From: Candidatus Krumholzibacteriia bacterium
Lineage (GTDB): Bacteria > Krumholzibacteriota > Krumholzibacteriia > LZORAL124-64-63
Length of the DNA stretch: 64,000 bases
Reading direction: 5' to 3'
NCBI GenBank assembly: GCA_014859985.1
Contig: JACZKN010000092.1
Span: 5,980 to 69,979, forward strand
Position numbers and translations under genes: made by a program. Below, piece after piece: positions 3,013 through 43,583 of this stretch. The first letter of the stretch is position 1, and each line of letters opens with the position of its first letter. The notes below the pieces were generated by a model, which saw only the letters and a program-made list of their open reading frames with translations, did no database searches and was not told the origin of the DNA.

Positions 3013-3033
3013 GACTTGGCCAAGCCTGACTAG

Positions 3034-8924: not shown

Positions 8925-9197
8925 CGGGCGGGCACGGGTCCTACTTGCCGATCGTGTCGTAGTTGGGAACGGTGCCGTCCCTGCGATGAACTACGACTCC
9001 ACCGTCGCCCTTCCGTCGGGCGATCTTGTTTGCTGACTGGTCGGCCTCGTGCTGAGGTAGGCGACGGTTTTCCCCCTGGGCTCCATTGTGCTTCCCGCGT
9101 CAACCGACTTTGGGATAAGGCATTACTGGCCGATCGTTGGATCTTTCCGCCATGGTCAGCCCCCTAATCTACAAGTACCTCCCACCGGAAGAGGACA

Positions 9198-14137: not shown

Positions 14138-14148
14138 TATGAAATCCT

Positions 14149-17100
14149 TTAGGCCGTCTGATTGGTTACGGAGTCGATCATCCTGTTGAACTCGGCCTCG
14201 ACTCTGGCCTCGAAATCGCTGCCGATCTGGTAGACGTCAGCGAACTCTGCAAACGCCCATCGGCCGTAGGTGCCAAGGTTATTCACTCCAGGTACCCAGT
14301 AGACGTCCATCGTAGACTTCTTCTCCTTGGCGTCTTCGCCGCGATATCCCTTGATCTCCACGACCAAGTGTAGCGGATCATCTTCTCCGCGTCCGTCGTC
14401 AACCAGGACGATGAAGTCGGGGATGTACGTTCGCATCTGGGAGCCGAAACGATACGGCACTTCCATCCCGAGGTTGTGATTTTTGACGTACGACCGAACG
14501 CAAGGATGCGCCTCCGCCACGCGGCAGAACTCCGCCTCCCAGTCGCTATCCAGAATGACCCAGTTGATGTGGCAACGTCTGGAATCCGTCTGCCACCGGT
14601 CTCTTTTCGATGTGTTGAAGTTCACAAATGAAGTCGAACCCGTCGGGTTATACGGATCAAGCACGGCCTTGATCGGCCGCTCGCCGATGAGCGAGCGGGT
14701 GATACCGGCTGTGATCCGCTCGCAGGCCATGTCTGCCAATTCCTGGTACATCAGTAATGCCGGGTAGGTGTCCCCTTTGCACTCGAGGCAGCTTTCCAGC
14801 CACTGCTTCGTTATGCGCTTTAGCTGCCCGAATAAATGAAGCTTTGGCTCCTCACCAGGATCTCGCCACTTCGTGTAAAGCAGCCGCTTCGTGACGTGGA
14901 ACAGCAACGTTGAGCGGCGCATGTCCCCAAGGTGCTCGAGGCTCAAATCGACGTCTTCGCCAATGATTCCCGCGTTCTTCGTGATCGATGGGCCAACGAT
15001 ATCGGGCGTCAGTACTAGAACCGAATCGTCGTTGAATTCAGCCGACAGCCTCTCTTCCGGCAACTCCACACGATAGCCATCCACTCGGGGAAAGCGGATC
15101 TCCAAGGAGTCGCGCTCTGGCCGTACAGCTTTGACTTGCACGGTTTCCCGCGGGGGCTGAGGCGGCGCTACTACCGGCTTAGCAGTGAAGTCGAACGGTA
15201 CGCCGAGAACGTCGGCATATTCGACGTTGAAGAGATTCTCTTCGTTCAGGTCATAGGATTGCCTGCGAAGAGCACGGCCGATGACCTGCTCACATAGCAA
15301 CTGCGTGCCGAACGCTCGCACACCCAGAACGTGTGTGACGGTGTTGGCGTCCCAACCCTCGGTCAGCATGGAGACCGACACCACGCAGCGGATCGATTCT
15401 CCCAGACGGTCTGGCTTCCCGACCGTGTTCATCACTTCTCGGAGCAGGTCTTGGTCTGTGAGGTTTTCGGCCTGCCGGAGGTCACCTGTTCGCTCGACGA
15501 TCTCTCGACGAAAGCGATCGATCTCGTCTGAGGCGAGATCTCGGAAATTCTTGTCCAGGGCATCCCCAGATTCGAGTTGTTCGCTGTCGATCAGCAAAGT
15601 CCGTGGGCGACCCAGTGGATTGCCATGGTCGTCAAAGTTTCGAAAGAGCTCCAGCCGGCCATTCTCGAGCGTTGTCGAACCGTCCTCGTTCTCTCTCTGG
15701 AAGCCAGAGATATAGTCGTACACCAGCTTCGAGGTCGAAGTGTTGTTGCAGACGACAATGAAGCATGGCGGGACCTTGATGGATGCCTTCTGCCATAGTT
15801 CGTATGTCTTTTCATAGTGGCCATAGAGGGCTTCAAGTGCTGTCTGCAACTCAACAGGGATGCTGAGTGGGTCAAGCGTCTTCCCTTTGCCGCGCCCCTT
15901 CTTTGGCATCCGCTTCCCGATATGCTCCCAAAGGTTCCGGAACTTCGGCATCTCCTCGCCTGGAATGTTGTCGGCGACCGGAACGCGAGGAAGTTTGACG
16001 ATGCCGCATTCGATGGCATCCATGAGCGAGAAGTCGCACATCGTCCAAGGGAAAAGGGTGCCTTCGGCGTAGCCGGAACCTCGCAGGAAGAACGGGGTCG
16101 CCGATAGATCGAAGACCTGGGCGAGGCCAAGCTTCCGGTTAATGGCTTCCAGACCCGAAATCCACACCCTTGCGGCTTCGTTGTTCTTTTCCGCTTCCTT
16201 GCGGTCGTCCCCCTTGAGGTCTCCCTCGTCATCGTTGACCTGCTTCTCGCGATAGCAGTGATGGCCTTCGTCATTGAGCGCCAAGACGTTTTTCATGCCC
16301 ATCAAGTCGGGCATGACTCGCTGAAGCATCTGCCCTTCCGATTCAAGGGTACTCAACTCCTCGCCACGTCCCTGAAGCAGTGAGCGACCGCCCTTCGACA
16401 GATCCAGCCGTTCCCGCAGCTTGAACGAGTGGAAGTTCGTAATGACGATCTTGGCGCGATCGAGATCGGCCAACATGTCGTTGGGTACGAGTTCGCGACT
16501 CTGGTAGTAGCTGTCGGGATCGTTGGGCAACAAGACGCGTAGGCGGTCACGGATCGTGATTCCCGGTGCGACGACAACGAAACCACGCGTGAACTTCTTG
16601 CTGGTTGGCCTCCGCACTGCGTTGATTGTCTGCCAAGCGATGATCATCGCCATGACCGTGGTCTTCCCTGCACCAGTCGCCAGCTTGAGCGCCAACCGTA
16701 ACAGCTCAGGATTGGCCTGTTCGTTCGCAGCCTTAAGATGATCAACGAGCTGGCGCCCTGTCTTGCCAGACTTCGGCGCGACCTCCCAAAGCCAAATAGC
16801 GGTCTCGACGGCTTCCAACTGGCAGAAAAACGGACGAAAGGAGGCGAACTTATGGTGCCGCCAATGTTGGAGGAGCCGAGCTGTCTCCGGCGTCACCTGC
16901 CATTGACTGGAGTTGGGCAGCGCTCTCCAACGATCGACTTCCCTGCGAACAGCATTGATGATCGGTGTCGGGTCATATTGCTGTTCTTGGGTCGAGAGCC
17001 CTTTGCCCTCATTGAAGACGATCTCTTGCTGCGTCTTCTTCTTGTGCTTCCGAGGCTTGGGAATAGGCGTTATCAGCTGGCAAGGCCGACGACGATCGAC

Positions 17101-17202
17101 AACTTTCTGGGTCGGTTGGCCGTTCTCATCAAGCTCCCAATGACGAATGGGGTAGTCGTATGGAGAATTGAGGATTGGATGCTTGAAGAACTCGTGATCC
17201 AT
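14149..17202 (-). CDS. res: Type III-like restriction endonuclease/helicase subunit (Res)
   Basis: MDHEFFKHPILNSPYDYPIRHWELDENGQPT N-terminus, Walker A LATGAGKT, DEGHH box, C-terminal PD-(D/E)xK-like D...EIKGYRGEDAKEKK. Start moved to internal ATG at 17202 because the track ORF upstream overlaps the HTH gene in another frame. Confidence 0.7.
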   Translation of the reverse strand: MDHEFFKHPILNSPYDYPIRHWELDENGQPTQKVVDRRRPCQLITPIPKPRKHKKKTQQEIVFNEGKGLSTQEQQYDPTPIINAVRREVDRWRALPNSSQWQVTPETARLLQHWRHHKFASFRPFFCQLEAVETAIWLWEVAPKSGKTGRQLVDHLKAANEQANPELLRLALKLATGAGKTTVMAMIIAWQTINAVRRPTSKKFTRGFVVVAPGITIRDRLRVLLPNDPDSYYQSRELVPNDMLADLDRAKIVITNFHSFKLRERLDLSKGGRSLLQGRGEELSTLESEGQMLQRVMPDLMGMKNVLALNDEGHHCYREKQVNDDEGDLKGDDRKEAEKNNEAARVWISGLEAINRKLGLAQVFDLSATPFFLRGSGYAEGTLFPWTMCDFSLMDAIECGIVKLPRVPVADNIPGEEMPKFRNLWEHIGKRMPKKGRGKGKTLDPLSIPVELQTALEALYGHYEKTYELWQKASIKVPPCFIVVCNNTSTSKLVYDYISGFQRENEDGSTTLENGRLELFRNFDDHGNPLGRPRTLLIDSEQLESGDALDKNFRDLASDEIDRFRREIVERTGDLRQAENLTDQDLLREVMNTVGKPDRLGESIRCVVSVSMLTEGWDANTVTHVLGVRAFGTQLLCEQVIGRALRRQSYDLNEENLFNVEYADVLGVPFDFTAKPVVAPPQPPRETVQVKAVRPERDSLEIRFPRVDGYRVELPEERLSAEFNDDSVLVLTPDIVGPSITKNAGIIGEDVDLSLEHLGDMRRSTLLFHVTKRLLYTKWRDPGEEPKLHLFGQLKRITKQWLESCLECKGDTYPALLMYQELADMACERITAGITRSLIGERPIKAVLDPYNPTGSTSFVNFNTSKRDRWQTDSRRCHINWVILDSDWEAEFCRVAEAHPCVRSYVKNHNLGMEVPYRFGSQMRTYIPDFIVLVDDGRGEDDPLHLVVEIKGYRGEDAKEKKSTMDVYWVPGVNNLGTYGRWAFAEFADVYQIGSDFEARVEAEFNRMIDSVTNQTA

Positions 17203-17213
17203 TGGGGGCGTCC

Positions 17214-17435
17214 TTAGGCTTTCTGATTGCGATTCTGACTGAGCCACTTGTCGATCGCAGTTTTGTGGAAACGCCAGTGGCGGCCGATCTTCTGACCGGG
17301 TACGTCCCCCCGGCGCGCCAGGTGATAGAGCGTCGATTTCGGTAGCTTCAGGTATTCGGCCAGCTGGTCGATGGTTAGCACCATATCTCGCGGTTCTTTC
17401 ATCAGTAACACCTCGCCGTGCAAGGCGAAGCGCAT
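17214..17435 (-). CDS. excisionase/AlpA-family HTH DNA-binding protein (possible controller of the R-M operon)
   Basis: LTIDQLAEYLKLPKSTLYHLARRGDVPGQKIGRHWRFHKTAIDKWL; stop 11 nt before Res ATG. Confidence 0.55.
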   Translation of the reverse strand: MRFALHGEVLLMKEPRDMVLTIDQLAEYLKLPKSTLYHLARRGDVPGQKIGRHWRFHKTAIDKWLSQNRNQKA

Positions 17436-17681
17436 TGCACAGTCGGAATGAGTGCAGGAGATAGTAGGCGTCGCTGGCAGTTGCTGTCAATTGTTGTTGG
17501 ATATCAGCCAGCAATGGCCACAGCAAGACGATTAACGCGTTTTACGTCACCGCATTAAGTCAGGAAGATGGAGATAGGGAAGCGCAGACAGAAGGTGATG
17601 GAGGGTCTCCTCTACTCCTCCGGCGCTGCCTCAATCATCTCGGTTGCGGCAGAACGCAGCCCAATCGACTTGGGACACTGC

Positions 17682-18083
17682 CTATTTCTTCTGAAATGTG
17701 CTCACCACTCCCGGAAGGATCTTCTCCGCCGATCGTCCGATCACGTACCCACCAAGACCGATCTCGACGATGTCCCAGAGCTTCAGGACCTCAGCCTCGC
17801 CCAGGTTCGGGGCCGACCACCCGAGCCACCGAGCCACGATCAACCCGACGAAGACCAGCATCGTGATCGGCCGCCAGGTCCGCTGGAGCCAACTCTGGCC
17901 CTGCGCCTCGGCCTTGACGACCTCGGCGGCCGCCCGTTCGATCTCCGAAGTCCGCTCCAGGACGGCCGCCTGCAGCGCCTGCTGCAGTTCGATCCGCTTC
18001 AGTTCCTGCTCCGGGTCCGGGAAGATGCGGTCGGCGACTCCGCCGGCGACCTTCCCCAGAATGCCAAGGATCTCTCCAACCAT
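17682..18083 (-). CDS. holin-like membrane protein
   Basis: 133 aa, membrane segments, immediately downstream of endolysin. Confidence 0.45.
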   Translation of the reverse strand: MVGEILGILGKVAGGVADRIFPDPEQELKRIELQQALQAAVLERTSEIERAAAEVVKAEAQGQSWLQRTWRPITMLVFVGLIVARWLGWSAPNLGEAEVLKLWDIVEIGLGGYVIGRSAEKILPGVVSTFQKK

Positions 18084-18095
18084 TGCTCTCTCCTC

Positions 18096-18590
18096 TCAGG
18101 CATAGGCCCGGTTCAGCCACCCGCCCTGGAACACGATCTGATCCGCGCTTCGGGCCACCCGAAGCCGGTATTCACCGGCGGCCTCAGACCTCAGGGCCGC
18201 CATCAATGCCTTCTGGTCGGCTTGCTCCGCCGCCCCGCAGGTCTCGGTACCCAGAAGCCCGTCGATCACGACCCGCAGACCGCAGGCCTGCAAGGCACGC
18301 TGGAGGCAGGTCACCGCCGTCTTGTTGCCGAGGTTGACGGCCAGATCGAACACCTTGACGGCGATCGCCTCGGGCAGGAACTCGTAGCGATGCCCCCGCC
18401 AGTAGCGCTCCCAGTAGACTTCGATCGCCTGCTCTCGGGTGAGGCTCGCCACGTCCAGGTCCGGGTTCCAACGCTTGGCGATCCCGAACTTGGTCGGCCC
18501 GCCCCGATCGACAGGGTTGTCGGTGTAGGTGTCACCCTCGTGCTCGAGGACTACCTCGATCGCCCGATCAAAGAGTTCTCTGCGGTTCAC
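18096..18590 (-). CDS. endolysin, GH108 lysozyme with PG-binding domain
   Basis: LEHEGDTYTDNPVDRGGPTKFGI and FDLAVNLG...LQRAL..DG..G..T match the GH108/PG_binding_3 pattern. Confidence 0.7.
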   Translation of the reverse strand: MNRRELFDRAIEVVLEHEGDTYTDNPVDRGGPTKFGIAKRWNPDLDVASLTREQAIEVYWERYWRGHRYEFLPEAIAVKVFDLAVNLGNKTAVTCLQRALQACGLRVVIDGLLGTETCGAAEQADQKALMAALRSEAAGEYRLRVARSADQIVFQGGWLNRAYA

Positions 18591-18591
18591 G

Positions 18592-18996
18592 TCAGGCCTC
18601 CCTTCGGGCCAGCTCGAGGCGCAGCGCCCCGAGGATGTCGCACAACCGCTGGCTGCGGTCCTTCATGTCCGTCTCGATCTCCTTCTGGGTCTCGTTGAGC
18701 CGCTCCATCCCGCTGCGGATCTGGATCAGGACCTCATGGACGTCGTCCAGCGAGTGCCGTCCAGGGGCCAGCGGGCAGACGACCTTGAGCTCCTCGAAGG
18801 CGACCTTCGTCCCATTGCTCCCATTGCGCCTCCACAGCTGATTTCGGGCGAGGTCGACGGTCTGGATGGCCAGCTTCACGGCCAGCATCGTCGCCATCAG
18901 CCCGAGCCCGCCAAGCCCCAAGCTGCGCGCTACTTCCAACGTCAGTTCCATCGATTGCCTTTCAGGACTCGAAGCGCCAGTCAAACGGGGGGTCAA
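18592..18996 (-). CDS. hypothetical phage membrane protein (lysis-associated?)
   Basis: TM segment GLGGLGLMATMLAVKLAI; adjacent to endolysin. Confidence 0.3.
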   Translation of the reverse strand: MTPRLTGASSPERQSMELTLEVARSLGLGGLGLMATMLAVKLAIQTVDLARNQLWRRNGSNGTKVAFEELKVVCPLAPGRHSLDDVHEVLIQIRSGMERLNETQKEIETDMKDRSQRLCDILGALRLELARREA

Positions 18997-19450
18997 ACTT
19001 GCTCGGCTGGACGTATGAGGCGATCAGCGTGAACCATGGCACGCTCAGCCAAGCTTGGGTCAGGGCCTGGAGTTCGACTTCGGCGCGGTAGGTCTCCCCG
19101 ACCGTAAGGCTAGGCACGTACACACGGTGGTCCGATGCCGTCGTCCACCCGCTCGTCCCGACGACCACCTCGTCGCTGACTCGGATGATCCGCATCCTCG
19201 CTCTGGCCTCAGTCAAGGGGGCGTTGAGGAAGGCGTACAGGTACGAGTTCGTGCCAGCAGCCGTGAAGGTGGATTGCGACGTGAGGACGAGTAGAACGGG
19301 CTCAGAAGCTACAATCCGCGGGGGCAGGATGACGCCTGTCCCATTCGCCCAACCGCCGTTGTGCACTTCTCCGCCGTACTGGGCCCGGGCAGCCATGGGG
19401 GCCACCGCCACCAGCCAAAGGATGATCACGGTGCAAGATCGAATACGCAT
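18962..19450 (-). CDS. secreted hypothetical protein
   Basis: Signal peptide MRIRSCTVIILWLVAVAPMAARA. Confidence 0.35.
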   Translation of the reverse strand: MRIRSCTVIILWLVAVAPMAARAQYGGEVHNGGWANGTGVILPPRIVASEPVLLVLTSQSTFTAAGTNSYLYAFLNAPLTEARARMRIIRVSDEVVVGTSGWTTASDHRVYVPSLTVGETYRAEVELQALTQAWLSVPWFTLIASYVQPSKFDPPFDWRFES

Positions 19451-19456
19451 TGCAGA

Positions 19457-19834
19457 TCACTCCCACATCATGTCTGCACGGCCATCGCCCGAGAGAAAGG
19501 CTGCGTCCGGGGCATTCGGTTCGAAGATGAAGCGCACGGGCAGACCCTCTCTCAGGGTGAAGACCGAGTCTCCGAGGGCTACCTTCGGTTTGAGTCGCGA
19601 CCAGGTATGCGCCGCGTCGTCGAAGACCCAGAACGACATGGTGACCGTCCCCAGGTCGGGCAACGCATACATGTCGAGGATGTGCGCCTTCTTCGATCCC
19701 ACCGGGCCGGTCCCGTAGAAAGGCACCCAGCCGGTGGCTTCGGCAACCGCACCATCCTGCGCAGCCAGGCCCAGCAGAGGAAGCCACATAGCAGCCACGA
19801 CCAGCAGCACCAAGCAGATGATCTTCGTTCTCAC
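19457..19834 (-). CDS. secreted hypothetical protein
   Basis: Signal peptide MRTKIICLVLLVVAAMWLPLLGLAA. Confidence 0.35.
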   Translation of the reverse strand: MRTKIICLVLLVVAAMWLPLLGLAAQDGAVAEATGWVPFYGTGPVGSKKAHILDMYALPDLGTVTMSFWVFDDAAHTWSRLKPKVALGDSVFTLREGLPVRFIFEPNAPDAAFLSGDGRADMMWE

Positions 19835-19892: not shown

Positions 19893-21401
19893 TCAATGAG
19901 TCGCTGACTCCATTTCCTCGTTCTTCTCTTCCTCATCGCCCTCGGAGTCCTTGGGCTGGTCTTCTGCCGGCTCGTCCGTAGCCACCGTTTCCCCCGAGAT
20001 CGACAGTCCGTACTCCTTGGCTAGCGCCTGCTCCCGGGCCAGTTCGGCGAAGACGTCCTCGATGTCCTCGCCCTTCTCAGCCAGGAACCCGGTCCTTGTC
20101 CCCAGACCGTTCTGGATCGACAGTACGGCGGCCTTGGCTTCCTTCTCGGGATCGATCCACTGCCAGCCACGAGGACGATGGCGGACGGACATGTAGCGGG
20201 AGGGATCGCGAGAGGAGAGCTTCAGGCTGCCCGTTAGCAGCGCCATGCCGAGCCAGGCCGAGTACAGCGGCCGCCGCCACATGTCGATGAAGTCCTGCTG
20301 GATGGAGCGCCAGTCGTCCCGTTCGACCAGCGCGAAGCTGCGCATGGTGGAGTAGCTGACGCCCTCGGCGTCGTTGGCCAGCACGTTGTAGAACACGCTG
20401 AACCCCGAGGCGATCTTCCGGAGCATCTGCTTGATGAACGCCGGGAACTGCGCCGTTGGATGGTCCGGCTCCCAGGCCTTGAACTCGTAGCCATCAGGGA
20501 CAATCTCGAACGTCCCCGGGTTGGCCTCCATGGTGGCAGGCCGTGGATCGCTGGCCAGGTCGCCGGCCAGGGAGTCGGCTCGCTTCTCGAACAGCCCCAT
20601 CTTCGAGGCGCCGATCCGTGCAGCGACGGCCTCCGACTCCTCATAGGCGTTGAGCATGTGCGCCGGGACCATGACCGAGTGGACCCACGTGACGCCTCTG
20701 GTCTGGTTCACGCGATCGGGGTCATAGAGGTGGAGCATCTCCGCAGCCGGGATGAAGTACCGCTCCCGCATCAGGTCAGTACCGACGGAGTCCCAGATCC
20801 AGTAGCCCACCGGTCGCCCGATGGCGTCGATCTCTACGCCCATGCGGATCTCGTTCTGGGAGCCGCGGCGGGGACGGTTGAATGTCTCGTCGATCAGGTC
20901 AGCGTCGATCGCTTGCAAGGCCAGGCCATGGGCATTGCCCTCGAATCCACGCCAGAGGCGGACGAAGGCCTCGCCGTCGCAAGCCACGGTCTTGAGGATC
21001 AGCTTCTCGAAGCGGCGCAACGTGAGCCGGCCGTCGACCGTCACCGGGGCGCTGGCCCAGGCATTCCACGCCTCATCGATGGCGGCGTTGGCCTTCGAGT
21101 CGGGCTGGTCCCCGGCCCAGACCTGGGCCTGGAGCTTGATCCCCATCGGTCCGATGACGTTGGTCACCAGCAGGCGGAAGTAGCGTTTGACGTAGCTGTT
21201 GTTGCGGCCGAGCTCGCGGGCGCGGGCCCGCAGCATGCGGATGTCGCCGCGGACTTCCTCGTCCGCGGACCGGGTCTGGGCGATCCAGTCCAGGAGCAGG
21301 CGGTGGACTCCCGCCCCGTCAAACACGCCGCGCTGACCGCGCAACTCCCGCCAGGCTGAACGAAACGCGCGACCGAGGCGCTTGTGCAGCGGTCGCTTCA
21401 T
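19893..21401 (-). CDS. phage portal protein, lambda (gpB) family
   Basis: ~500 aa; C-terminal region aligns by eye with lambda gpB (G.SY..L..M.S.S..R...W pattern); acidic C-terminal tail. Confidence 0.65.
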   Translation of the reverse strand: MKRPLHKRLGRAFRSAWRELRGQRGVFDGAGVHRLLLDWIAQTRSADEEVRGDIRMLRARARELGRNNSYVKRYFRLLVTNVIGPMGIKLQAQVWAGDQPDSKANAAIDEAWNAWASAPVTVDGRLTLRRFEKLILKTVACDGEAFVRLWRGFEGNAHGLALQAIDADLIDETFNRPRRGSQNEIRMGVEIDAIGRPVGYWIWDSVGTDLMRERYFIPAAEMLHLYDPDRVNQTRGVTWVHSVMVPAHMLNAYEESEAVAARIGASKMGLFEKRADSLAGDLASDPRPATMEANPGTFEIVPDGYEFKAWEPDHPTAQFPAFIKQMLRKIASGFSVFYNVLANDAEGVSYSTMRSFALVERDDWRSIQQDFIDMWRRPLYSAWLGMALLTGSLKLSSRDPSRYMSVRHRPRGWQWIDPEKEAKAAVLSIQNGLGTRTGFLAEKGEDIEDVFAELAREQALAKEYGLSISGETVATDEPAEDQPKDSEGDEEEKNEEMESATH

Positions 21402-22003
21402 CGGTCAAACCCAGGCTTGGTGAACGACACGAGCACCGGTCGCGTGAAGGACCCGGGATTCTTGAGACCCGCCAGGCGGGACTCGAGGCTCGCCAGGAGG
21501 CTCATCGCCTCCTTGATCGGCATCTTGGCGACAACGCGCCCGGCGATCTGGTAGCTCTCCATCCCCGCGGGCAGACGACCCTCGATGTGGGCCCGCAGCA
21601 TCGTGATCGCCCGCTCGATCCACTCCTGCTCGCTGCCTTCGGAGGCCTCGGCCAGATTGGGCAGCACCGTGACGGTGCCGCGACCTACCTCGTAGACCTC
21701 GCCGCCGCTGTTCGAGACCCGCTCGACCCACTTGTACAGTCCCGCGACGAATCCACCCTCGGTATCGGGTGCCTCGATGGTGACGAGGAACTCGTCGCCG
21801 TCGGTAGCCGCTGTCTTCGCGAGCACGCTCGCGCCCGCCAGATGGACCCGGAGCGTCCACCCGGCAGAGGCCGGGTAATCGACCAACCGCCTGCGGTAGC
21901 AGACGGTGGTGCCGGCGGCGAACTGATCGGGGAGATTTGCGAGTTCCTGTGCCATGCGCCCACGGTGCCACCGCTCGCGTAACCCCACCAATCTAAATGA
22001 CAT
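21398..22003 (-). CDS. hypothetical phage protein upstream of portal (start uncertain; ATG 22003 lies inside a palindrome, alternative ATG 21955)
   Basis: 201-aa ORF coupled (ATGA) to portal. Confidence 0.35.
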   Translation of the reverse strand: MSFRLVGLRERWHRGRMAQELANLPDQFAAGTTVCYRRRLVDYPASAGWTLRVHLAGASVLAKTAATDGDEFLVTIEAPDTEGGFVAGLYKWVERVSNSGGEVYEVGRGTVTVLPNLAEASEGSEQEWIERAITMLRAHIEGRLPAGMESYQIAGRVVAKMPIKEAMSLLASLESRLAGLKNPGSFTRPVLVSFTKPGFDR

Positions 22004-22012
22004 TTAGATTGG
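21988..22012. repeat. perfect 25-bp palindrome CCAATCTAAATGACATTTAGATTGG between divergent portal-side and capsid-side genes
   Basis: Read directly; both strands begin ORFs with ATG(A/T)CATTTAGATTGG because of the symmetry. Confidence 0.9.
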
Positions 22013-22024
22013 TCCGGTTTTCGC

Positions 22025-22049
22025 GGATGCATCACTACTGGATGCATGA
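22025..22049 (+). promoter_or_regulatory. direct repeats GGATGCAT(C/G)A x2 (each containing palindromic ATGCAT) overlapping the capsid gene start
   Basis: ggatgcatcactactggatgcatga read directly. Confidence 0.4.
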
Positions 22050-24025
22050 ACACGCAAAGCGCCATCAAGACACGCACCGTCAAGGTGCCACGGATCCAGT
22101 ACCGGGACTTCGAGGTCGAGGTCGAGGCCCGCGCCGGAGACGAAGAAGGCCAGATCCGGCTCTACCCCGTGTCCTTCTCCAGCGAGGCTCCCGTCCGCCG
22201 CTACTCCTGGGACAACTGGGAGGAGTACGACGAGGTCCTGTCCCACAAGGCCAGCGACGTCGACCTCAGCAGGGCCAAGAACGGCCTGCCCCTGATCAAG
22301 TCCCACCAGCGCCTTCTGCACTTCGGCTCGGTCAACGATATCGATCTCGACGAGAAACGCGGCCGCCTTCGCGGCAATGCGAGCTTCTCGTCGATCCCGT
22401 TGGGCCAAGAGCAGGAGACGATGCTCCGCGAGGGGCACATCAAGACCGTCTCGGTGGGCTACCAGGTCCTGTCGATGGAAATGGTCACCAAGGACAAGAA
22501 GTCGGGCCTGGCGACCTACCGCTGCCGCTGGATGCCCTACGAGGTCTCCACCGAACCCATTCCCGCCGACCACAAGGTCGGCTTCGGGCGCACGCGAGGC
22601 GCATCCGAGGTCGACCTGGTCGAGTTCACGATCGAAGAGCCCGCCCCAGAAGGAGAACGAACCATGAGTGTCGAAGCAGGAACCCCGCCCGCCGCGGTCG
22701 AACGGCCCGCCACGGGCACCGAGACCCGAGAAGCGCCGGCGGCGTCCGCGCCGGCACCCAAGGTCACCGAGACCCGGGATCGCGGCGCCGAAGCGGCCGA
22801 GATCATGGACATGGCCCAGGCCCACGGCCTGACCGACAAGGCCTCCGGCTGGATCCGGCAGGGATTCACCCCGGACCAGGTCTCACGTGAGATCCTCAAG
22901 TCCGTCCGTACCCACGGTCCCGGCCAGCCGTCGGCTGAAGCGCTGGCAGCAATGCCGGCCAAGGACAGGAAGCGCTACTCTATCCACCGCGCGATCCGCA
23001 TGCAGGCCGAACTGATGGACGGTAAGCGCAGCCGGTACGACGGGCTCGAGGCCGAGGTCCACGAGGAACTCACCAAGCACCGCACCGGCGCGGACCACGG
23101 CGGCGTGCTGGTGCCGTGGCGTCTGAGCGATGACGACCAGCAGCGCGTCCTGGGCACGACCCAGCCCTCGGGCGGCGCGACCGTGGTCGGCCAGCAGATC
23201 ATGCCCGACATGATCGATCTGCTGCGCAACCGTGCTCTCGTGCTGGTCGCGGGTGCCAAGCTCTATCCGGGCCTGCAGGGTGTGGTCTACTTCAACAAGA
23301 AGACCGGCGCTCCGAGCGTGACCTGGATGGAAGAGAACCCGCCCGCCGACGCCCCCCAGTCCGAGCCCGCGTACGGTTACGTGTCGCTCTCGCCCAAGAC
23401 CCTGATTGGCCAGGTGCAGATCCCCCGGCAGCTGCTGGTGATGTCCTCGATCGACGTCGAGGCCGACATCCGCAGCGACCTGGCGACCGGCCACGGCCTG
23501 GCCCTGGATCTCGGCGCGCTGCACGGCAAGGGCACGGACAAGCAGCCGGTGGGCATCTACGGAGCGGCCGACGTGCAGTCCCACGGCGTGGGCGGCGTGC
23601 CCGACCTGACGGACATCACCACGATGCCTGCCCTGGTCGCGGACAAGAACGCCGACCTCGGGGCGCTGTCCTGGATGACCACCCCGCTGATGGCCGGCGT
23701 GCTCAAGCGCACGCCCCTGGTCACCGGCTACCCGGTCTTCCTGTGGGCCGGCACCTACCGCGAGGGCGAGCTCGGCGGCTACCCCGCCCGCACCACGAAC
23801 CAGATCTCCAAGACCCTGGGGGCCGGCAGCAACGAGCACGGCCTCGTCTTCGGCAACTGGAACGACCTGCTGGTGGGCATGTGGGGCAACGACCTCGAGA
23901 TCGTGGTCGACGTCGTAACCAAGGCCGCCCGCGGCCAGATCCTGATCACCAGCTACTCGATGGCCGACACCGCCGTCCGCCGCGGCGAGTCGTTCGTCAA
24001 GGGCACCGGCGCCCTGCTGTCGTAG
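22046..24025 (+). CDS. prohead protease/scaffold-like N-terminal domain fused to HK97-fold major capsid protein
   Basis: 659 aa; C-terminal half (SGGATVVGQQIMPDMIDLLRNRALVLVAGAKLYPG...) typical of HK97-family MCP; N-terminal ~280 aa resembles HK97-type prohead protease. Confidence 0.65.
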   Translation: MNTQSAIKTRTVKVPRIQYRDFEVEVEARAGDEEGQIRLYPVSFSSEAPVRRYSWDNWEEYDEVLSHKASDVDLSRAKNGLPLIKSHQRLLHFGSVNDIDLDEKRGRLRGNASFSSIPLGQEQETMLREGHIKTVSVGYQVLSMEMVTKDKKSGLATYRCRWMPYEVSTEPIPADHKVGFGRTRGASEVDLVEFTIEEPAPEGERTMSVEAGTPPAAVERPATGTETREAPAASAPAPKVTETRDRGAEAAEIMDMAQAHGLTDKASGWIRQGFTPDQVSREILKSVRTHGPGQPSAEALAAMPAKDRKRYSIHRAIRMQAELMDGKRSRYDGLEAEVHEELTKHRTGADHGGVLVPWRLSDDDQQRVLGTTQPSGGATVVGQQIMPDMIDLLRNRALVLVAGAKLYPGLQGVVYFNKKTGAPSVTWMEENPPADAPQSEPAYGYVSLSPKTLIGQVQIPRQLLVMSSIDVEADIRSDLATGHGLALDLGALHGKGTDKQPVGIYGAADVQSHGVGGVPDLTDITTMPALVADKNADLGALSWMTTPLMAGVLKRTPLVTGYPVFLWAGTYREGELGGYPARTTNQISKTLGAGSNEHGLVFGNWNDLLVGMWGNDLEIVVDVVTKAARGQILITSYSMADTAVRRGESFVKGTGALLS

Positions 24026-24358: not shown

Positions 24359-24748
24359 ATGACCCACCTACTGAACGCCCTGGCCCAGGCCGTGAGCGGG
24401 GAACTCGCTCCGGCCGCCCGGCGGACCACGACTCTGACCGGGACCGGGATCGACGTGCTCGAGTACGAGGGTGTAGCCCTGGTCCTGCTGAACGCGTCGG
24501 CCGGCACCGGGACAAGCCCCACCCTGGACGTGAAGCTCCAGCACTCGGACGACGACTCGACCTACGAGGATGTCACCAGCGGCGCGTTCACCCAGGTCAC
24601 AGATGTGGCTGAGACCGCCGGCGTGCGGGTCATGAAACTGAACGTTTCGGACCTGAAGCGCTACCTGCGGGTGGTCGGCACCATCGCCGGCACCACGCCG
24701 TCGTTCGACTTCGGTGTGGAGTTCGTCGGGATCACGAAGGCGGGCTGA
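24359..24748 (+). CDS. phage structural hypothetical protein
   Basis: Position in head module. Confidence 0.4.
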   Translation: MTHLLNALAQAVSGELAPAARRTTTLTGTGIDVLEYEGVALVLLNASAGTGTSPTLDVKLQHSDDDSTYEDVTSGAFTQVTDVAETAGVRVMKLNVSDLKRYLRVVGTIAGTTPSFDFGVEFVGITKAG

Positions 24749-24751
24749 GCC

Positions 24752-25057
24752 ATGACCCTCGGCGGCTTCGACATCGCCGCGATGCTCGCGGACCTGGCAG
24801 AGGCCGGTGGCACGGTCGAGGTCACTCTCGGCGACACCACCGTCTTCGGTCTGATGGACCGCGAGGCCGTCGAGATCCTCGGCGGGGAGATGCCAGCCAT
24901 CGTCGCCGCCGATGAGATCGTCCATGTGCAGAGCGGGGTGTTGCCGGGCTTGCAGTCCGGAGCCGCCATCACCGTGGGCGGTACCGCCTACAACGTCCTG
25001 AAGGTCCTTCCCTACGGGGACGGGGCCATGGTCCGAGTCGCGTTGAGGACGTCATGA
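24752..25057 (+). CDS. putative head-tail connector protein
   Basis: Position and size; overlaps neighbours by 4 nt. Confidence 0.35.
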   Translation: MTLGGFDIAAMLADLAEAGGTVEVTLGDTTVFGLMDREAVEILGGEMPAIVAADEIVHVQSGVLPGLQSGAAITVGGTAYNVLKVLPYGDGAMVRVALRTS

Positions 25058-25524
25058 GCACGATCCGCGAGCAGATCGTCTCGGCTGCAGTCCTGGCGCT
25101 GACCACGGACGCGCCCGTTGGCGTTCCCGCACCCGTGCGGACGCGCCTGGACTCACCTGGCGCAGACCAACTGCCCGCGCTGACGGTCTACCAGGGCACC
25201 GAGACGGTCGATCCGATGCGGGATGCCAAGACGGGCACAGCAAGCCGTGGCCCCATCGTGAGGCGTTCGGTGCTTCTGAGCGTCGAGGTCCTGACCAAGG
25301 CCGCGGCTGGAGACGAGCCCGACAAGGCCGCTGATCCGATGCTCGCCTGGGCTACGGCTTCGCTGGCAGCAGCCGGCACGTTCGGTGGTCTGGCCAACGG
25401 TCCGGCCGACGAGCTCGGCACGAAGTTCGAGTACGAGCAGGCCGAGACGTCGTTCTGCCGGGCCACCCAGACGTTCCGAGTCGATTACCAGTCCCGCGCC
25501 GATGACGCGGAGAACCTGACCTAA
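25054..25524 (+). CDS. putative head-tail joining/tail completion protein
   Basis: Position. Confidence 0.35.
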   Translation: MSTIREQIVSAAVLALTTDAPVGVPAPVRTRLDSPGADQLPALTVYQGTETVDPMRDAKTGTASRGPIVRRSVLLSVEVLTKAAAGDEPDKAADPMLAWATASLAAAGTFGGLANGPADELGTKFEYEQAETSFCRATQTFRVDYQSRADDAENLT

Positions 25525-25537
25525 GAGGGAGGAAGCC

Positions 25538-26305
25538 ATGCCCGAGGTCGTCAACGGCAACAATATCCTGCTCGGCAGGGGCAAGATCTACTTCGACCGT
25601 TTGAACGCGAGCGGCGTACGCACCGGCGAGCTGTTCCTGGGCAATTGCCCCACGTTCGAGGTCACGCCTACGAGCGAGGACATCAAGAAGTACTCGAGCG
25701 CCGATCGGTCGGCCGACCTGATCGCCTCGGACGTGCTGCGCACCACGCTCGCCATCCGCATCGTAGGCGACGAGTTCTCCAAGGAGAACCTGGCCATGGC
25801 CCTGTTCGGCGACACGGCCACGCTGGCTCAGACAGGCTCGACCGTCACCGCCGAGGAAATCGCTGGCGTCCTGCAGGGCCGGTACTACGCGCTGGCCATG
25901 CGCCAGGTGAGCCTGGTCACGGTGACAGGGACGGGCGGCACCCCCACCTACGACGTGGACGATGACTACAAGGTCGATGCCATCACCGGCCGCATCTACA
26001 TCGTCGAGGGCGGTGCGATCACCGACGACACGGACATCGAGGTGGACTACACCTACGGCACCATCGCCCTGCCGACCGTCCGCGGCATGAACCAGACCTC
26101 GATCAAGGGCTACCTGCGGTTCATCGGCGACCCTGCGCGCGGCCCCAAGTACGAGTGCGAGATCTGGCGGGCGTCGATTCGCGCAGACGGAGCCATCGGG
26201 TTCATCTCCGACGAGTACGCGAGCTTCACCCTGACCGGGGACATCGAGTCCGACGCGTCGAACCACCCGAACGAGCCGCATTACCGGCTGATCAGGATCG
26301 CGTGA
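25538..26305 (+). CDS. putative major tail protein
   Basis: 255 aa immediately upstream of chaperone pair and tape measure. Confidence 0.45.
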   Translation: MPEVVNGNNILLGRGKIYFDRLNASGVRTGELFLGNCPTFEVTPTSEDIKKYSSADRSADLIASDVLRTTLAIRIVGDEFSKENLAMALFGDTATLAQTGSTVTAEEIAGVLQGRYYALAMRQVSLVTVTGTGGTPTYDVDDDYKVDAITGRIYIVEGGAITDDTDIEVDYTYGTIALPTVRGMNQTSIKGYLRFIGDPARGPKYECEIWRASIRADGAIGFISDEYASFTLTGDIESDASNHPNEPHYRLIRIA

Positions 26306-26874
26306 TGACCGAGAAACACACGATCGGCGGCCGCACGTTCCTGCCGCTGCGCGAATCAACCGTCGAGCAGGACTTCCGGTTCTTGGCCCTGATCAATCGG
26401 GCCCGGATCGACGAGGTGGTCATGCAGCCCGGCGAGAGCCCCGAGGCCTTCGCCCGGCGGCTGATGGAGGTGACGATCGAAAGCGGCGCGATCCTGGACC
26501 TTCTCGGGTGCCTCCTGATCCCGGAGGACATCGCACCCCAGGACCGGGACCCCGGGGAGGCCTGGACCCCAGAGGTTGGACGCGAAACCGCCCGGTTCCT
26601 TGGGCAGCTACGGGACCCCAAGGACAAGGCGGAGGTGCGAAGTCTGGTCCTGTCGCTGCTGGTCTCTTTTTTCGAGAGCGGGATCGTCTCTTTGTGGACT
26701 TCGACGACATCCTCCACCGAGGCGATCCCGAACCCCAAGACAGGCCAGGCATCCCCGGCCGGTACGGCCCCTGGACCGAGCTCGTCGGAGAGCTTGCCGC
26801 AGGCGACCACGACCGAGCCGAGCGGATCGTCCGCTGGCCGCTCCGGGTCGCCCTCGCCTCCTACCGCCGGGTGA
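26305..26874 (+). CDS. tail assembly chaperone (G-like), with probable -1 frameshift extension to 27017
   Basis: Gene between major tail and tape measure; overlapping ORF 26508..27017 in the -1 frame runs to the TMP start. Confidence 0.45.
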   Translation: MTEKHTIGGRTFLPLRESTVEQDFRFLALINRARIDEVVMQPGESPEAFARRLMEVTIESGAILDLLGCLLIPEDIAPQDRDPGEAWTPEVGRETARFLGQLRDPKDKAEVRSLVLSLLVSFFESGIVSLWTSTTSSTEAIPNPKTGQASPAGTAPGPSSSESLPQATTTEPSGSSAGRSGSPSPPTAG

Positions 26875-27003
26875 TGAAAGAGCAGGCGCTCGAGGACTAC
26901 CGCCACAGGTTCCTCTGCTGGTGCGTCCTGGCACCGCATAGCGCCAAGGGATCGCGACCGCGGCCGCCGGCCGTGCCCGATATCCTGAGAGGAAGGTCCA
27001 CCG

Positions 27004-29562
27004 ATGGCCACCCCTGATGTGCGAGTCCGGCTATCGGCCGAAGGCGTCGCCGAGGTCGTGGCCTCCCTCAAGAAGGTCCAGGCCGAAAGCCAGAATACCT
27101 CGGCCAAACAGGCGCGCGGGTTCTCGGGTCTGAACCGCGTCCTGGGCTCGACTTCATCGCTTCTCGGCGGCCTCGGAGTCGCTCTCGGAGTGCGCCAGTT
27201 CCAGCAGTGGATCCAGTCTTCGGTGAACGCCGCTGACCAGATCCAGAAACTCGGTCAGAAGGTCGGCGCTTCGACCGAAAACCTCTCTGCCTTGCACCTT
27301 CTGGCCCGGACCTCCGCCTCAAGCCTCGGGGAGATGGGTGCGGCCCTCGCCAAGCAGAACAAGTTCATCGGGGATGTGGCTGAGGGTAACCCGAAGGCCG
27401 TCGCCACCTTTCGCGACTTAGGGCTGACTCTCGATGACTTGAAGGGCAAGGACTCGGTCGAGATCTTCGAGCTCCTGGCTCAGCGGATCACCGCTATGCC
27501 CTCGCCGATCCAGAAGACCAAGACCGCCATGGACATCTTCGGGCGGGCCGGGTCGAACCTCATCCCGACCATGAATGCCCTGGCGGACGAGGGCCTTGGT
27601 GGGGTCATCGAACGAGCCCGCGAACTGGGCGTCCTGATCGACACCCGCCTGGCCGAGTCCGCCCGGCAGATGAACGACGACTTCGAGCTCCTGAAGGCCC
27701 AGAGCGAAGGCCTCGGCACCCGGTTGGCCGCGGGTCTCGTGCCGCAGCTGTCCCAGGCCCTGCAGATCATGAGCGGCGACCTGAAGCAGACCACCGAGGC
27801 CTGGGAGAAGTTCGGCCAGGGCATCGGGCTCGTGCTGAAGTTCATCGTCGCGGTCGTCTCGTCCGCGTTCGACGTGGTGGGCACGGCGCTGTCGTTCGTG
27901 ATGATGCGGATCGATTCGAGCGTCAGGGCGGTCTGGGCATTGCTGCACGGCAATCTCGATGAGGCCAAGGCCTATCTCAAGACCGCGGGCGAAGCGATCA
28001 GCGCCGAGCAGAACGAACTGTTCGACCGCCTGAAGGCCCGGTTCGAACTGACGATCACCACCCCGACCGAGCCCACCGCGCGAGAGGAAGCCCCTGCGGA
28101 GGATTACTCCGAGGACCCGGCCGCGTTGGCCGCCAAACGCGCCCAGGCTCTCCAGATGACCCTCGATCGCGAGCTGGCGCTGGTCAGGTCGATGGGAGCC
28201 CTACGCAACGCCGCCGAGAAGCGGTCTTTCGAGCAGGGCCTCAAGGACGTCCGCTCCTACTACGAGGATCGCCGCCGTGCGGCTGAGGAGGAGTACGCCA
28301 AGGAGATCGCCGTCCTCGAGCAGAAGCGTGCTCTTCTTGACAGCGAAGTCGATCCGAGCCGTCGCCTGCAGGAACAGGGGAAGATCGACGCCGAACTGGC
28401 CAAAGCTCGCGCGACACAGGAAGAGCGCATCGCTGCGTTGCTGTACGAGGAGCGCGAGGCGGTCCAGAAGCTCGCCCAAGAGCGCCTTGGGCTCGAGAAG
28501 ACCCTGCTCGAAGCCCAGGGCCGCCGCCACGAAGCCGCGCTCCTGGGAATCGACGAAGAGATCCGGCGGGCCGATCTGCTGCTCAAGAAGCAGGGCGCAG
28601 CGGACGCCGAGCGCGAGGCCACGCTCGCCCGGCTGCGCAGTTCGATGGAATCCGGGGCCAACTTCGACGAGATCAAGCGCCAGGCCGAAGCCGCGCTGGC
28701 CGACCTGGACGCCACGCGCTCCGAGATCGAAGCCCGCGTCTCGGCGGGCCTGCTGTCCCAGGTCGAGGGCGAGCAGCAGATCCTGGACATCGAAGCCGAG
28801 CGCCTGACGGCCCTGCAGGCTCTCGCGGAGGCACTCGAGCAAACGGCCTGGGCTACCGGGGACCCGGAGAAGATCGCCCAGGCCAGAGGCTTCACCGAAG
28901 CGGTCCGCGACCTCGGGTTCGCGGTCGAGGGTGCCCGCGCTTCGTTCGCCGCCTTCGGCAAGACGGCGCTGGATAGTGGTCGCGACGCCCTGACCGAGTT
29001 CTTCGACACCGGGATCACCGGCGCGAAATCCCTCGGCGATGCCTTCCGAAACTTGGCCCTGTCGATCATCGCCGATCTGAAGCGCATGGCCGCCCAGCTT
29101 CTGGCCACCGCCATCATCAAGAAGATCGCCGGGGTGTTCAGCGGTGGCGGTCAGGTCGGGGGGGCGGATAAGAAAGCCACGGGCGGTGTCCTGGGCGGGC
29201 TCGGCACCGGCACGTCGGATTCCAACCTCGCTTGGTTCTCTCGCGGCGAGTACCTCGTGCGCGCCGCGGTGGTCCGCGAGCCGGGCGTCCTGCGCCACCT
29301 CGACGAACTGAACCGCCGCGGATCACAGGCCTTGGTCCCGACTCCTGTCCTTATCGAATCCCCCGTGCCTCGCTTCGCCGAGGGCGGCCTGGTCGATGGG
29401 CCCGCAGCCACGGACCCGCAGGCCTCCAACGACAGTCAACTGCTGATCGGCCTGGAGGATGGGCTGATCCTCCGCCACCTGGAAAGCCCCGCCGGCCAGC
29501 GCATCCTGGTCAAGGCCATGGCCAAGAACCGCCGCGCGATCCGCTCGGCCCTGGGGACGTGA
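27004..29562 (+). CDS. tail tape measure protein
   Basis: 852 aa, Ala/Glu/Arg/Leu-rich coiled coil, canonical position. Confidence 0.75.
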   Translation: MATPDVRVRLSAEGVAEVVASLKKVQAESQNTSAKQARGFSGLNRVLGSTSSLLGGLGVALGVRQFQQWIQSSVNAADQIQKLGQKVGASTENLSALHLLARTSASSLGEMGAALAKQNKFIGDVAEGNPKAVATFRDLGLTLDDLKGKDSVEIFELLAQRITAMPSPIQKTKTAMDIFGRAGSNLIPTMNALADEGLGGVIERARELGVLIDTRLAESARQMNDDFELLKAQSEGLGTRLAAGLVPQLSQALQIMSGDLKQTTEAWEKFGQGIGLVLKFIVAVVSSAFDVVGTALSFVMMRIDSSVRAVWALLHGNLDEAKAYLKTAGEAISAEQNELFDRLKARFELTITTPTEPTAREEAPAEDYSEDPAALAAKRAQALQMTLDRELALVRSMGALRNAAEKRSFEQGLKDVRSYYEDRRRAAEEEYAKEIAVLEQKRALLDSEVDPSRRLQEQGKIDAELAKARATQEERIAALLYEEREAVQKLAQERLGLEKTLLEAQGRRHEAALLGIDEEIRRADLLLKKQGAADAEREATLARLRSSMESGANFDEIKRQAEAALADLDATRSEIEARVSAGLLSQVEGEQQILDIEAERLTALQALAEALEQTAWATGDPEKIAQARGFTEAVRDLGFAVEGARASFAAFGKTALDSGRDALTEFFDTGITGAKSLGDAFRNLALSIIADLKRMAAQLLATAIIKKIAGVFSGGGQVGGADKKATGGVLGGLGTGTSDSNLAWFSRGEYLVRAAVVREPGVLRHLDELNRRGSQALVPTPVLIESPVPRFAEGGLVDGPAATDPQASNDSQLLIGLEDGLILRHLESPAGQRILVKAMAKNRRAIRSALGT

Positions 29563-29565
29563 GCC

Positions 29566-31203: not shown

Positions 31204-32276
31204 TGGCCGCTTCCTACCAGACCGGAATCAGCAGCTCGCCCACGAACCTCCTGCAGACGCTGGTGGCCTGGCTCTCTGCCCAAGGCTGGACCGTGAACCA
31301 GTCCGAACAGGAAGGCACCGGTTGGCGGTCCCACCTGGTGAAGTCCGGCAGCCTGAACCTGAACCTCCGCGCCGCGGAGGACGAACGGCTCTGGACCAGA
31401 GGCATCAGCAGCTACCACGACCTGGGCGATGGCGGCTACGGGATCGGCCTGTACCTGGGAACCGGCTGGGACGGGGAGGAATTCTGGGACGCCCAACCGG
31501 GTGGCCCCATGCGGCCCTACGATCTGACCACGTCCGGCTGCGGCATGAACCTGCCCCAAGGACAGATCTCGGCCTACCACTTCTTCGACGACGGCAACGA
31601 CCACATCACCGTCGTCGTGGAGCGCGCGGCGGGGATCTTCTGCCACATGGGGTGGGGCCCGTCCCTTGAGCGGGCGACCTTGCCCGAACCGTTCCCCTAC
31701 TTCTACGCGAGCTCGAGCACGAAGCTCAACACCGCCGAAACCTCGGATCTGCTCTCCGGTAACCGGCACGGGATCGATCTGACCGCCTTTCCGCCCATGT
31801 CCCACACGGACGAGGACTACTCGACCATGGGCGGGTCGACGGCGCTGACCCATTGCACGGCATTCGTTCGCGTGGACGCCGCGTCCTTCTCTGGCCGCTG
31901 GGTCGGCGACTGCAAGGATGAGAACGAGGGTTACGGCTGGACCGGCCGCCGCATGCGCGACGCCCTGAACAAGTGTCTGGCCGCCCAGGGCGGCATGGAA
32001 GAGGACGAGTACGTCAACTACCAGTACCTGTGGGACGACGGCTCGGGCGGACCCGGGGAGAGGACGCTGCAGAGCGCATTCGGCGGTGCGCTGATGCTCC
32101 CCTTGCACTGCTTCGTGGAGACCGTTCCTCAGGGTCGCTGGGCCCCGATCGGCTATCCGCCCACTGTGTTCTGGACCGAAGCCGTAGGCCACGGCTACAG
32201 CGCTGGCGACATCTACCAGTTGGGCGGCCAGGACTACATGCTGTTCCCGTTCTTCGCCGTCAGGAAGGCCGCCTGA
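31203..32276 (+). CDS. tail protein, paralogue of the C-terminal region of the preceding gene
   Basis: Shared H..VV...A.I..HMGWG / PYWFVCDGRHAVVIAK-type segments; TAATG overlap. Confidence 0.4.
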   Translation: MAASYQTGISSSPTNLLQTLVAWLSAQGWTVNQSEQEGTGWRSHLVKSGSLNLNLRAAEDERLWTRGISSYHDLGDGGYGIGLYLGTGWDGEEFWDAQPGGPMRPYDLTTSGCGMNLPQGQISAYHFFDDGNDHITVVVERAAGIFCHMGWGPSLERATLPEPFPYFYASSSTKLNTAETSDLLSGNRHGIDLTAFPPMSHTDEDYSTMGGSTALTHCTAFVRVDAASFSGRWVGDCKDENEGYGWTGRRMRDALNKCLAAQGGMEEDEYVNYQYLWDDGSGGPGERTLQSAFGGALMLPLHCFVETVPQGRWAPIGYPPTVFWTEAVGHGYSAGDIYQLGGQDYMLFPFFAVRKAA

Positions 32277-39094: not shown

Positions 39095-39095
39095 C

Positions 39096-40082: not shown

Positions 40083-40096
40083 TTGGAGATGACGCC

Positions 40097-43195: not shown

Positions 43196-43214
43196 GCCAT
43201 GAAGGAGAGCAGTC

Positions 43215-43553: not shown

Positions 43554-43583
43554 GACCGTCCGCGACGAGAAAGGGCCGCCACC

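Follow-up and report, generated by a model that had tools for sequence, protein, structure and literature searches.

What does a perfect palindrome do at the point where the structural genes of a prophage run apart? The question arises in a 64,000-nucleotide (nt) stretch of contig JACZKN010000092.1 (assembly GCA_014859985.1, Candidatus Krumholzibacteriia bacterium), hereafter the window, in which a leftward operon containing the portal gene and a rightward operon beginning with a prohead protease-major capsid gene diverge from a short spacer. A first-pass annotation had proposed that the palindrome in this spacer was an invertase-type recombination crossover, a shared operator or the mark of a rearrangement breakpoint. 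Our analysis indicates that the palindrome is clearly real and functional, and we conclude with moderate confidence that it serves as a common operator for two late promoters arranged back to back, to which a phage-encoded dimeric regulator, likely an activator, binds.

The 25-bp palindrome originally reported, CCAATCTAAATGACATTTAGATTGG, is indeed perfect and lies at 21988-22012, inside a larger perfect palindrome of 27 bp (21987-22013) whose core across the family is CCAATCTAAAT-N3-ATTTAGATTGG. It is the longest perfect hairpin-type palindrome of the window: its arms are 13 bp long, compared with longest arms of 8-12 bp in 30 first-order Markov simulations of the same sequence. A search for a second copy of the half-site, which the first-pass annotation had suggested, returned nothing in the window beyond chance-level matches with two mismatches. 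The spacer had been described as a 42-bp junction, on the basis of an ATG at 22003 that falls within the palindrome itself. However, the gpW-like protein encoded by the first minus-strand gene aligns from the ATG at 21955 in all relatives, most of its 160 database homologues are 183-186 amino acids (aa) long, and the matching PHROG profile begins only at residue 24 of the long form. Because the gene starts at 21955, the spacer is 90 bp long, and the annotated gene start is to be corrected from 22003 to 21955. The center of the dyad at 22000 is then 45 and 46 nt from the two start codons, in the middle of the spacer. The two operons diverge as described, with the portal gene on the minus strand and the protease-capsid gene on the plus strand, but the gene adjoining the spacer is the gpW-like gene, not the portal gene. 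The ATGCAT direct repeats that had also been pointed out are present; they are poorly conserved among relatives (for example, GGATGAATCA...GGGTGCATG), and the second copy is merely the region of the capsid start codon.

We compared the junction across about 75 related contigs with 51 distinct spacer sequences, drawn from many metagenomes and metagenome-assembled genomes (MAGs). Capsid-based searches yielded 25 viral and 15 genome or MAG contigs that span the junction, gpW-like homologues added five more distant contigs, and the exact DNA pattern returned 20 stretches in 2.9 million viral contigs and 34 in 241 million metagenome records. All exact-pattern matches lie at this junction save two, which leaves 32 of the 34 metagenome matches there. 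The two others (L201, 1034-1058; L203, 93-117) come from an unrelated A+T-rich genome, where they sit between convergent genes in an A8-hairpin-T8 arrangement; these 25-mers, with TTA or TAA at their center, are terminator-like and coincidental. Further viral-contig scans with the capsid proteins of L054 and L025 mostly returned contigs that were already known. Every contig that reaches the junction has the identical divergent layout, with the dyad at the same position; one more distant relative, L164, has no clear dyad. In the 40.6-kb viral contig 3300033170_000464, the capsid gene is followed on its strand, 20.7 kb downstream, by the large terminase gene (TerL). We found no nucleotide match among cultured phages, whose capsid protein is only about 30% identical and whose gene order is collinear, as in VP882 (TerS-TerL-head-tail joining [gpW-like]-portal-capsid). 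The first-pass annotation was correct that terminase lies 26 kb from portal, on the other strand, and that the packaging-portal-capsid order is non-collinear; this order is a fixed trait of the whole prophage lineage rather than of the present genome.

Sequence comparison of the spacers indicates that both the palindrome and its symmetry are under selection. The 43 distinct type-A spacers have a pairwise identity of 98.8% over the 27-bp palindrome and of 69% over the remaining spacer. Watson-Crick symmetry, determined for 42 distinct sites, is 93-100% at distances of 2-13 from the center, falls to 45-79% at distances 14-17 and is at background beyond, so that an extension of the hairpin past 13 bp is rejected. 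More than one type of complementary pair occurs at distances 3-8 and 13, reflecting compensatory double changes. The outer CCAA/TTGG and the inner AT are almost invariant, and it is the bases between them that change symmetrically. Distant relatives carry other perfect or near-perfect dyads in the same place and with the same three-base center, including CCAAGTCCGAT-GAC-ATCGGACTTGG, CGCCAAGACAAAT-CAG-ATTTGTCTTGGCG, ATTCCAGT-AAC-ACTGGAAT, CCAACCTAAAT/ATTTAGTTTGG, CCAAGCTAAAT-CAG-ATTTATCTTGG and TCAACTAAAAT-TAG-ATTTTACTTGT, and at least five operator types adhere strictly to the N3 spacing between the arms. Symmetric changes between invariant outer and inner bases point to a dimeric protein with a co-evolving operator. 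Phage-encoded regulators and their operators typically change specificity within a fixed frame, and on this general ground the changes in operator specificity suggest that the regulator is encoded by the phage rather than the host.

The placement of the dyad relative to the flanking genes is equally constrained. In nearly all relatives, the ATG of the gpW-like gene is 44-45 nt and that of the capsid gene 45-46 nt from the dyad center, and these distances hold also in lineages with unrelated operator sequences. The first genes on both sides begin with ATG in all 48 distinct spacers compared, and no relative has GGAG, GAGG, AGGA or GGGA within 20 nt upstream of either first gene. Most internal phage genes, by comparison, are preceded by strong Shine-Dalgarno motifs, with GTG or TTG as the start codon of several. 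Two relatives in which the capsid ATG lies at +91 or +97 from the center have GAGGGAG or GGAGGGAG as a Shine-Dalgarno sequence. Fixed spacing, ATG-only starts and the lack of Shine-Dalgarno motifs together suggest that both transcripts are normally leaderless, starting at or within 1-2 nt of the ATG. If they do start at the ATG, the dyad center would lie near -45 of both promoters.

Candidate promoter elements can be placed on this scale. TTG is found at distances 9-11 from the center in every operator type, and CA at distances 33-34 on both sides. On the rightward side, TTGGTC would sit at -37 to -32 if transcription starts at the capsid ATG. On the leftward side, T-15, G-14, C-12, A-11, C-9, G-8 and T-7 of the extended -10-like element are each at least 90% conserved among the 48 distinct spacers. 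A TCAC motif follows TTGG by about 19 nt, also in the lineage of L025, L170 and L172. A sigma-70 scan of 21700-22300 gave no consensus promoter, for a consensus that may not be that of the host phylum, and both late promoters look weak. Other promoter assignments fared poorly. TAGATT, present in each arm, was discarded as a -10 element since the operators of L025, L168 and L054 do without it. A sigma-54 site on the gpW-like side (TGGCAC-N5-GCGCA) was rejected because many relatives have TGTCAC without GG and the start would be intragenic, and neither Bacteroidetes-type -33/-7 motifs nor a PvdS-like TAAAT-N16-CGT gave a consistent fit. Matches to TTGG-N18-20-TCAC number nine in the window, where 4.6 are expected, and none is informative.

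In four relatives, 0.8-1.9 kb of cargo, read on the capsid-sense strand, has been inserted between the operons. In each, a full palindrome remains at the usual distance from the gpW-like gene and a second copy lies 46 nt from the capsid ATG; the duplicated stretch stops at the palindrome borders. Because each operon keeps its own copy after insertion, these loci are strong evidence that both operons need the palindrome in cis. The flanks common to L053, L056 and L058 suggest that the duplication may go back to one or two events. Two of the four prophages, L056 and L058, carry frameshifts and are decaying. On one MAG contig assigned to Candidatus Eisenbacteria (CAVSKL010000003.1), about 58 kb separate two related prophages (L053 and L056), one seemingly intact and one frameshifted, and both have cargo at the palindrome.

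In the mechanism that we propose, a phage-encoded protein would bind the dyad as a dimer, with the variable inner bases as its specificity determinants and the outer TTG of each arm in the -35 position. This single site would govern the gpW-like, portal and lysis genes of the leftward operon as well as the protease-capsid, tail, TerS and TerL genes of the rightward one, and activation would come about by one dimer touching RNA polymerase on each side. We favor an activator because the core promoters appear weak, the site is centered upstream of both -35 positions and late genes need a positive switch.

Several observations weigh against this model. The transcription start points are placed from spacing alone, the -10-like elements match TATAAT poorly, and the symmetric leaderless layout is not universal, as the capsid start of L025, L170 and L172 lies about 90-100 nt from the center. 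A protein reaching out to distance 13 would also mask both -35-like hexamers, as would suit a repressor equally well. In the duplicated operators, the distal arms are more degenerate than the proximal ones (16 versus 3 mismatched or missing bases), a pattern that agrees slightly better with one arm for each promoter than with a site that requires a dimer. Finally, Pfam, PHROG and Protein Data Bank (PDB) sequence searches of the small phage open reading frames (ORFs) gave no helix-turn-helix, ribbon-helix-helix, Ogr/Delta or Mor/C match; the PDB searches, made with four small ORFs, returned nothing. Candidates for the regulator were also considered individually. A regular expression for Ogr-like zinc fingers picked out two adjacent small C4 zinc-ribbon ORFs at 60041-60502 (minus strand), for which neither a family match nor any viral-contig relative was found. 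One of them (60257-60502) has CPQC-X22-CRRC with the Ogr spacing and no Pfam match, and its neighbor is Com-like (CANC...CRNC); both probably lie outside the right end of the prophage, which comparison with a viral contig puts near 60.0 kb. A SpoVG-like ORF at 51342-51659 (minus strand), a sub-threshold Pfam match in the distal part of the early operon, is found in only 4 related loci and is unlikely to be a conserved late regulator.

The main alternative, which we judge unlikely, is that a phage repressor dimer occupies the dyad in the lysogen and blocks both late promoters by covering their -35 regions. The dyad does span both -35-like TTG elements (distances 9-14), the site is single-copy, and its position, conservation and co-variation fit a repressor as well as an activator. 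Yet promoters without good consensus hexamers look as if they depend on an activator, not like strong promoters that are kept repressed, the ORFs searched gave no CI/Cro-like protein, and temperate phages usually silence their late genes by not making an activator or antiterminator. Next comes the idea, distinctly improbable in our view, that there is no dimeric regulator at all and that each arm instead serves its own side as a core promoter element, recognized by a phage-specific sigma factor or polymerase or by a monomeric factor, the palindrome resulting from back-to-back abutment. The universal TTG at distances 9-11 would agree with this, as would the better-kept proximal arms of the duplicated copies and the capsid side of L058, which retains only a proximal half; however, L056 and L058 belong to the decaying prophages. 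Independent promoter elements would also leave unexplained why the three-base arm spacing is so strictly kept and why bases at distances 2-8 (about -38 to -44), upstream of any -35 element, co-vary symmetrically. Moreover, there is no additional single-arm copy elsewhere in the prophage, and no phage sigma factor or RNA polymerase was detected among the window ORFs searched.

As an invertase-type crossover, or as a hairpin or cruciform site of cassette insertion that produced the divergent order, the palindrome would account for the unrelated cargo inserted exactly here in four relatives with palindrome copies on the flanks, and for a gene order that differs from that of collinear cultured relatives. 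Against such a role, neither the window nor long related contigs contain a second copy, the window ORFs that were scanned have no recombinase, resolvase or integrase domain, and none of about 75 relatives has an inverted flank; the duplication perhaps arose once or twice, with its cargo later swapped by ordinary homologous recombination. We consider a recombination site very improbable; what is left of that proposal is a weak remnant, namely cargo insertion with duplication of the palindrome, and not a crossover. A nucleic-acid hairpin acting as RNA structure in a 5' untranslated region, as a terminator or as an origin of replication or packaging is hardly credible. The predicted fold is stable (RNA, -35.6 kcal/mol, z -4.8; DNA, -16.8 kcal/mol, z -7.8) and compensatory changes keep its pairing, but the genes diverge, the A+T-rich stem has no T-run, a terminator scan of 21700-22300 found no terminator-like site, and Rfam has no family for the palindrome (only a chance mir-278 match of 17 bits against a 55-bit threshold). 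The non-complementary variants (C/T, G/G, T/T and others) include G:T in only one of about 20 cases and thus have no wobble signature, and invariant CCAA and AT around a variable core are unlike a plain stem. In addition, the palindrome would be untranscribed if the transcripts are leaderless, and TerS with the presumed cos/pac region is 25 kb away. The unusual gene order and the very short spacer are all that suggests an assembly artefact or a genome-specific rearrangement scar. The comparative data refute this, as about 75 contigs were independently assembled with the same junction, which is fixed among these relatives. The first-pass annotation had itself named, as a possible refutation, related phages that share the divergent arrangement and keep the palindrome as a conserved operator. 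The comparison found a conserved divergent layout with the palindrome in the same place; of the proposals made there, the shared operator is the one supported.

We also considered a more extensive version of the operator model, in which one dimer at a single dyad activates both leaderless promoters at once, the entire late program of a 42-kb phage hangs on this one site and the palindrome is in addition a cargo hot spot whose operators are regenerated by hairpin or cruciform processing. This combination we regard as quite doubtful.

The gene map places the spacer at the head of all recognizable late genes, because the two divergent operons together hold them (Table 1). Gene calls in the leftward operon were based on G+C content at the third codon position (GC3) together with Pfam and PHROGs; the endolysin and holin genes have phrog_315 and phrog_3427 matches besides those to Pfam. 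A 376-aa ORF at 17568-18698 (plus strand) was rejected as a spurious antisense frame over the holin, endolysin and 134-aa genes, and its seeming conservation in relatives stems from the real genes on the opposite strand. Beyond TerL (49771), the rightward strand has a few small genes, and early replication genes (prim-pol, helicase, RusA, SSB, AAA_24 and PDDEXK) occupy the minus strand, reading from about 58.6 to 51.3 kb.

Table 1. Positions of the control region, its elements and the flanking genes in the window, and of the cargo inserted in four relatives (coordinates of the respective related locus). Promoter elements are predicted.
Feature	Positions	Strand	Details
Spacer between divergent late operons (bidirectional control region)	21956-22045	none	90 bp
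Dyad, putative operator	21987-22013	none	27-bp perfect palindrome, 13-bp arms, central A at 22000
Direct repeat GGATGCATCA...GGATGCATGA	22025-22034 and 22040-22049	+	Second copy contains capsid ATG 22046
TTGGTC, -35-like hexamer, rightward promoter	22009-22014	+	Outer right arm plus 2 nt
CACTACT, -10-like element, rightward promoter	22033-22039	+	C, A, A, T at least 90% conserved
TTGGTG, -35-like hexamer, leftward promoter	21986-21991	-	Mirrors right element; TTGGTC in most relatives
TGGCACCGT, extended -10-like TGnCAnnnT	21962-21970	-	-15 to -7 from ATG of gpW-like gene
gpW-like head-tail joining gene, first leftward gene	21398-21955	-	185 aa; phrog_5774, E 2.7e-24
Portal, lambda family	19893-21401	-	PF05136, E 6e-85; phrog_21, E 5e-100
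Rest of leftward operon	17682-19834	-	125-, 162- and 134-aa unknowns, endolysin, holin
Endolysin	18096-18590	-	GH108 plus PG_binding_3
Holin with three transmembrane segments	17682-18083	-	GTA_holin_3TM
Prohead protease-major capsid fusion, first rightward gene	22046-24025	+	PF04586 plus PF05065; phrog_617, E 4e-81
Head-tail and tail genes	24359-37216	+	Bbp16-like, head-tail attachment, tail terminator, major tail, tape measure, distal tail
Outer-membrane efflux protein	37760-39094	+	
HlyD/CusB-type fusion protein	39096-40082	+	
1032-aa protein	40097-43195	+	Full-length phrog_7301 match; presumed resistance-nodulation-division (RND) pump from context and size
P-II-like protein	43215-43553	+	
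Cation-diffusion facilitator	43584-44489	+	
ParB-methyltransferase	45874-47370	+	phrog_498
TerS	47374-47937	+	phrog_57
TerL	47921-49771	+	phrog_15
L057 cargo	2423-3112		SRA-HNH endonuclease; second palindrome copy complete
L053 cargo	8641-9815		Two small lipoprotein-like ORFs; second copy slightly degenerate
L056 cargo	8276-9858		Two unknown ORFs; second copy slightly degenerate
L058 cargo	9076-9990		Decayed sequence; capsid side keeps only proximal half-site

The prophage carries further cargo away from the palindrome. A heavy-metal-type efflux block at 37760-44489 (plus strand), between the tail genes and the ParB-methyltransferase and TerS genes, looks like cargo within the late-strand part of the prophage. 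Past the holin gene, 7950-17526 (minus strand) encodes a Res-like helicase/endonuclease, an N6/N4 DNA methylase, a UvrD-like helicase and a TIR-domain protein, and different DNA methylase genes lie at the same post-holin place in two relatives (L045, 2912-5062; L052, 3340-4434). Nucleotide homology to relatives begins sharply at about 17500, and the lysis end of the prophage is a variable spot for restriction and defense cargo. In the lower-G+C flank on the other side, a 686-aa protein with a QueC-like stretch (60696-62756, minus strand) may, we presume, be part of a QatC-like defense system. A host-like flank (1978-3012 and 4272-5279, minus strand) encodes an MvdD-type ATP-grasp protein, as in pathways for ribosomally synthesized and post-translationally modified peptides (RiPP-like), and a protein with a type IX secretion system (T9SS) C-terminal sorting domain. 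The hosts of the prophage family are probably Candidatus Eisenbacteria and neighbors in the FCB (Fibrobacteres, Chlorobi and Bacteroidetes) group, which the T9SS sorting-domain protein in the flank fits.

This prophage family is common in metagenomes and lives in an uncultivated phylum, and no promoter or regulator is known for its probable host phylum, Candidatus Eisenbacteria. If the operator model is true, the palindrome is a concrete and testable control point for head, tail, packaging and lysis genes alike. A constant distance of 45 nt, combined with the lack of Shine-Dalgarno motifs, predicts leaderless transcripts for this group. Operators that have a common frame and differ in their inner bases, when matched to complete genomes, could reveal the regulator, and the operator-duplicating inserts mark a spot where these phages acquire defense and other cargo genes.

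How does this element compare with known systems? The closest precedent is the pair of P2-type late promoters PP and PO, and the present element would work alike without being a member of that family. In P2-like phages, the PQ operon (portal Q, terminase P) and the ONML operon (scaffold O, capsid N) diverge from PP and PO, which carry the dyad TGT-N12-ACA and are activated by Ogr, Delta or B; the Ogr dyad is centered at about -55. In the Stenotrophomonas phage Smp131, a single 18-bp site, read in both directions, is predicted to be PP' as well as PO' (PMC3931495). The present locus resembles these systems in that portal-side and capsid-side late operons diverge from a short spacer with a dyad-symmetric site. 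Likewise, one dyad would serve both promoters, as in Smp131, and a small phage protein would switch the late genes, as in P2. Unlike P2, the spacer (21956-22045) contains no TGT, its dyad is CCAATCTAAAT-N3-ATTTAGATTGG instead of TGT-N12-ACA, and its center would be nearer to the start points, at about -45. The locus also differs in having TerL at the distal end of the capsid-side operon and lambda/HK97-VP882-like head genes; its first genes appear leaderless, and the window ORFs scanned gave no match to the Ogr/Delta zinc-finger family.

In phage Mu, the dimeric activators Mor and C bind a dyad centered at -43.5 of promoters without a -35 match. The locus is Mu-like in that a putative activator dyad abuts or overlaps the -35 of weak late promoters at a similar distance from the start point, but the sites of Mu serve one promoter each and are unrelated in sequence, and no Mor/C protein was detected here. 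Class II activation at divergent promoters by one symmetric dimer is known for regulators of the CRP/FNR type, and lambda cI at OR2 activates PRM. As in these cases, one dimer beside the -35 element could contact polymerase on either face; unlike these host or immunity regulators, which have many sites, the present one would have a single site per genome and a specificity that varies by lineage.

The hix and gix sites of Hin, Gin and Cin come as an inverted pair that flanks an invertible segment, beside a serine recombinase gene and an enhancer. The palindrome is like them in being about 26 bp long with an asymmetric center and in residing in a phage, but here there is a single copy, no inverted isoform among about 75 relatives and no recombinase in the scanned ORFs. 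Arbiol et al. (2010) reportedly described promoter/stem-loop cassettes (PeSL) that flank shuffled genes in T4-type phages. The cargo loci are PeSL-like in that repeated regulatory motifs bracket variable cargo at a hot spot, whereas PeSL are early promoters found genome-wide and the present case is a late operator duplicated at one locus in 4 relatives. Taken together, these comparisons identify no new kind of system but a known type of element in an uncultivated phage family.

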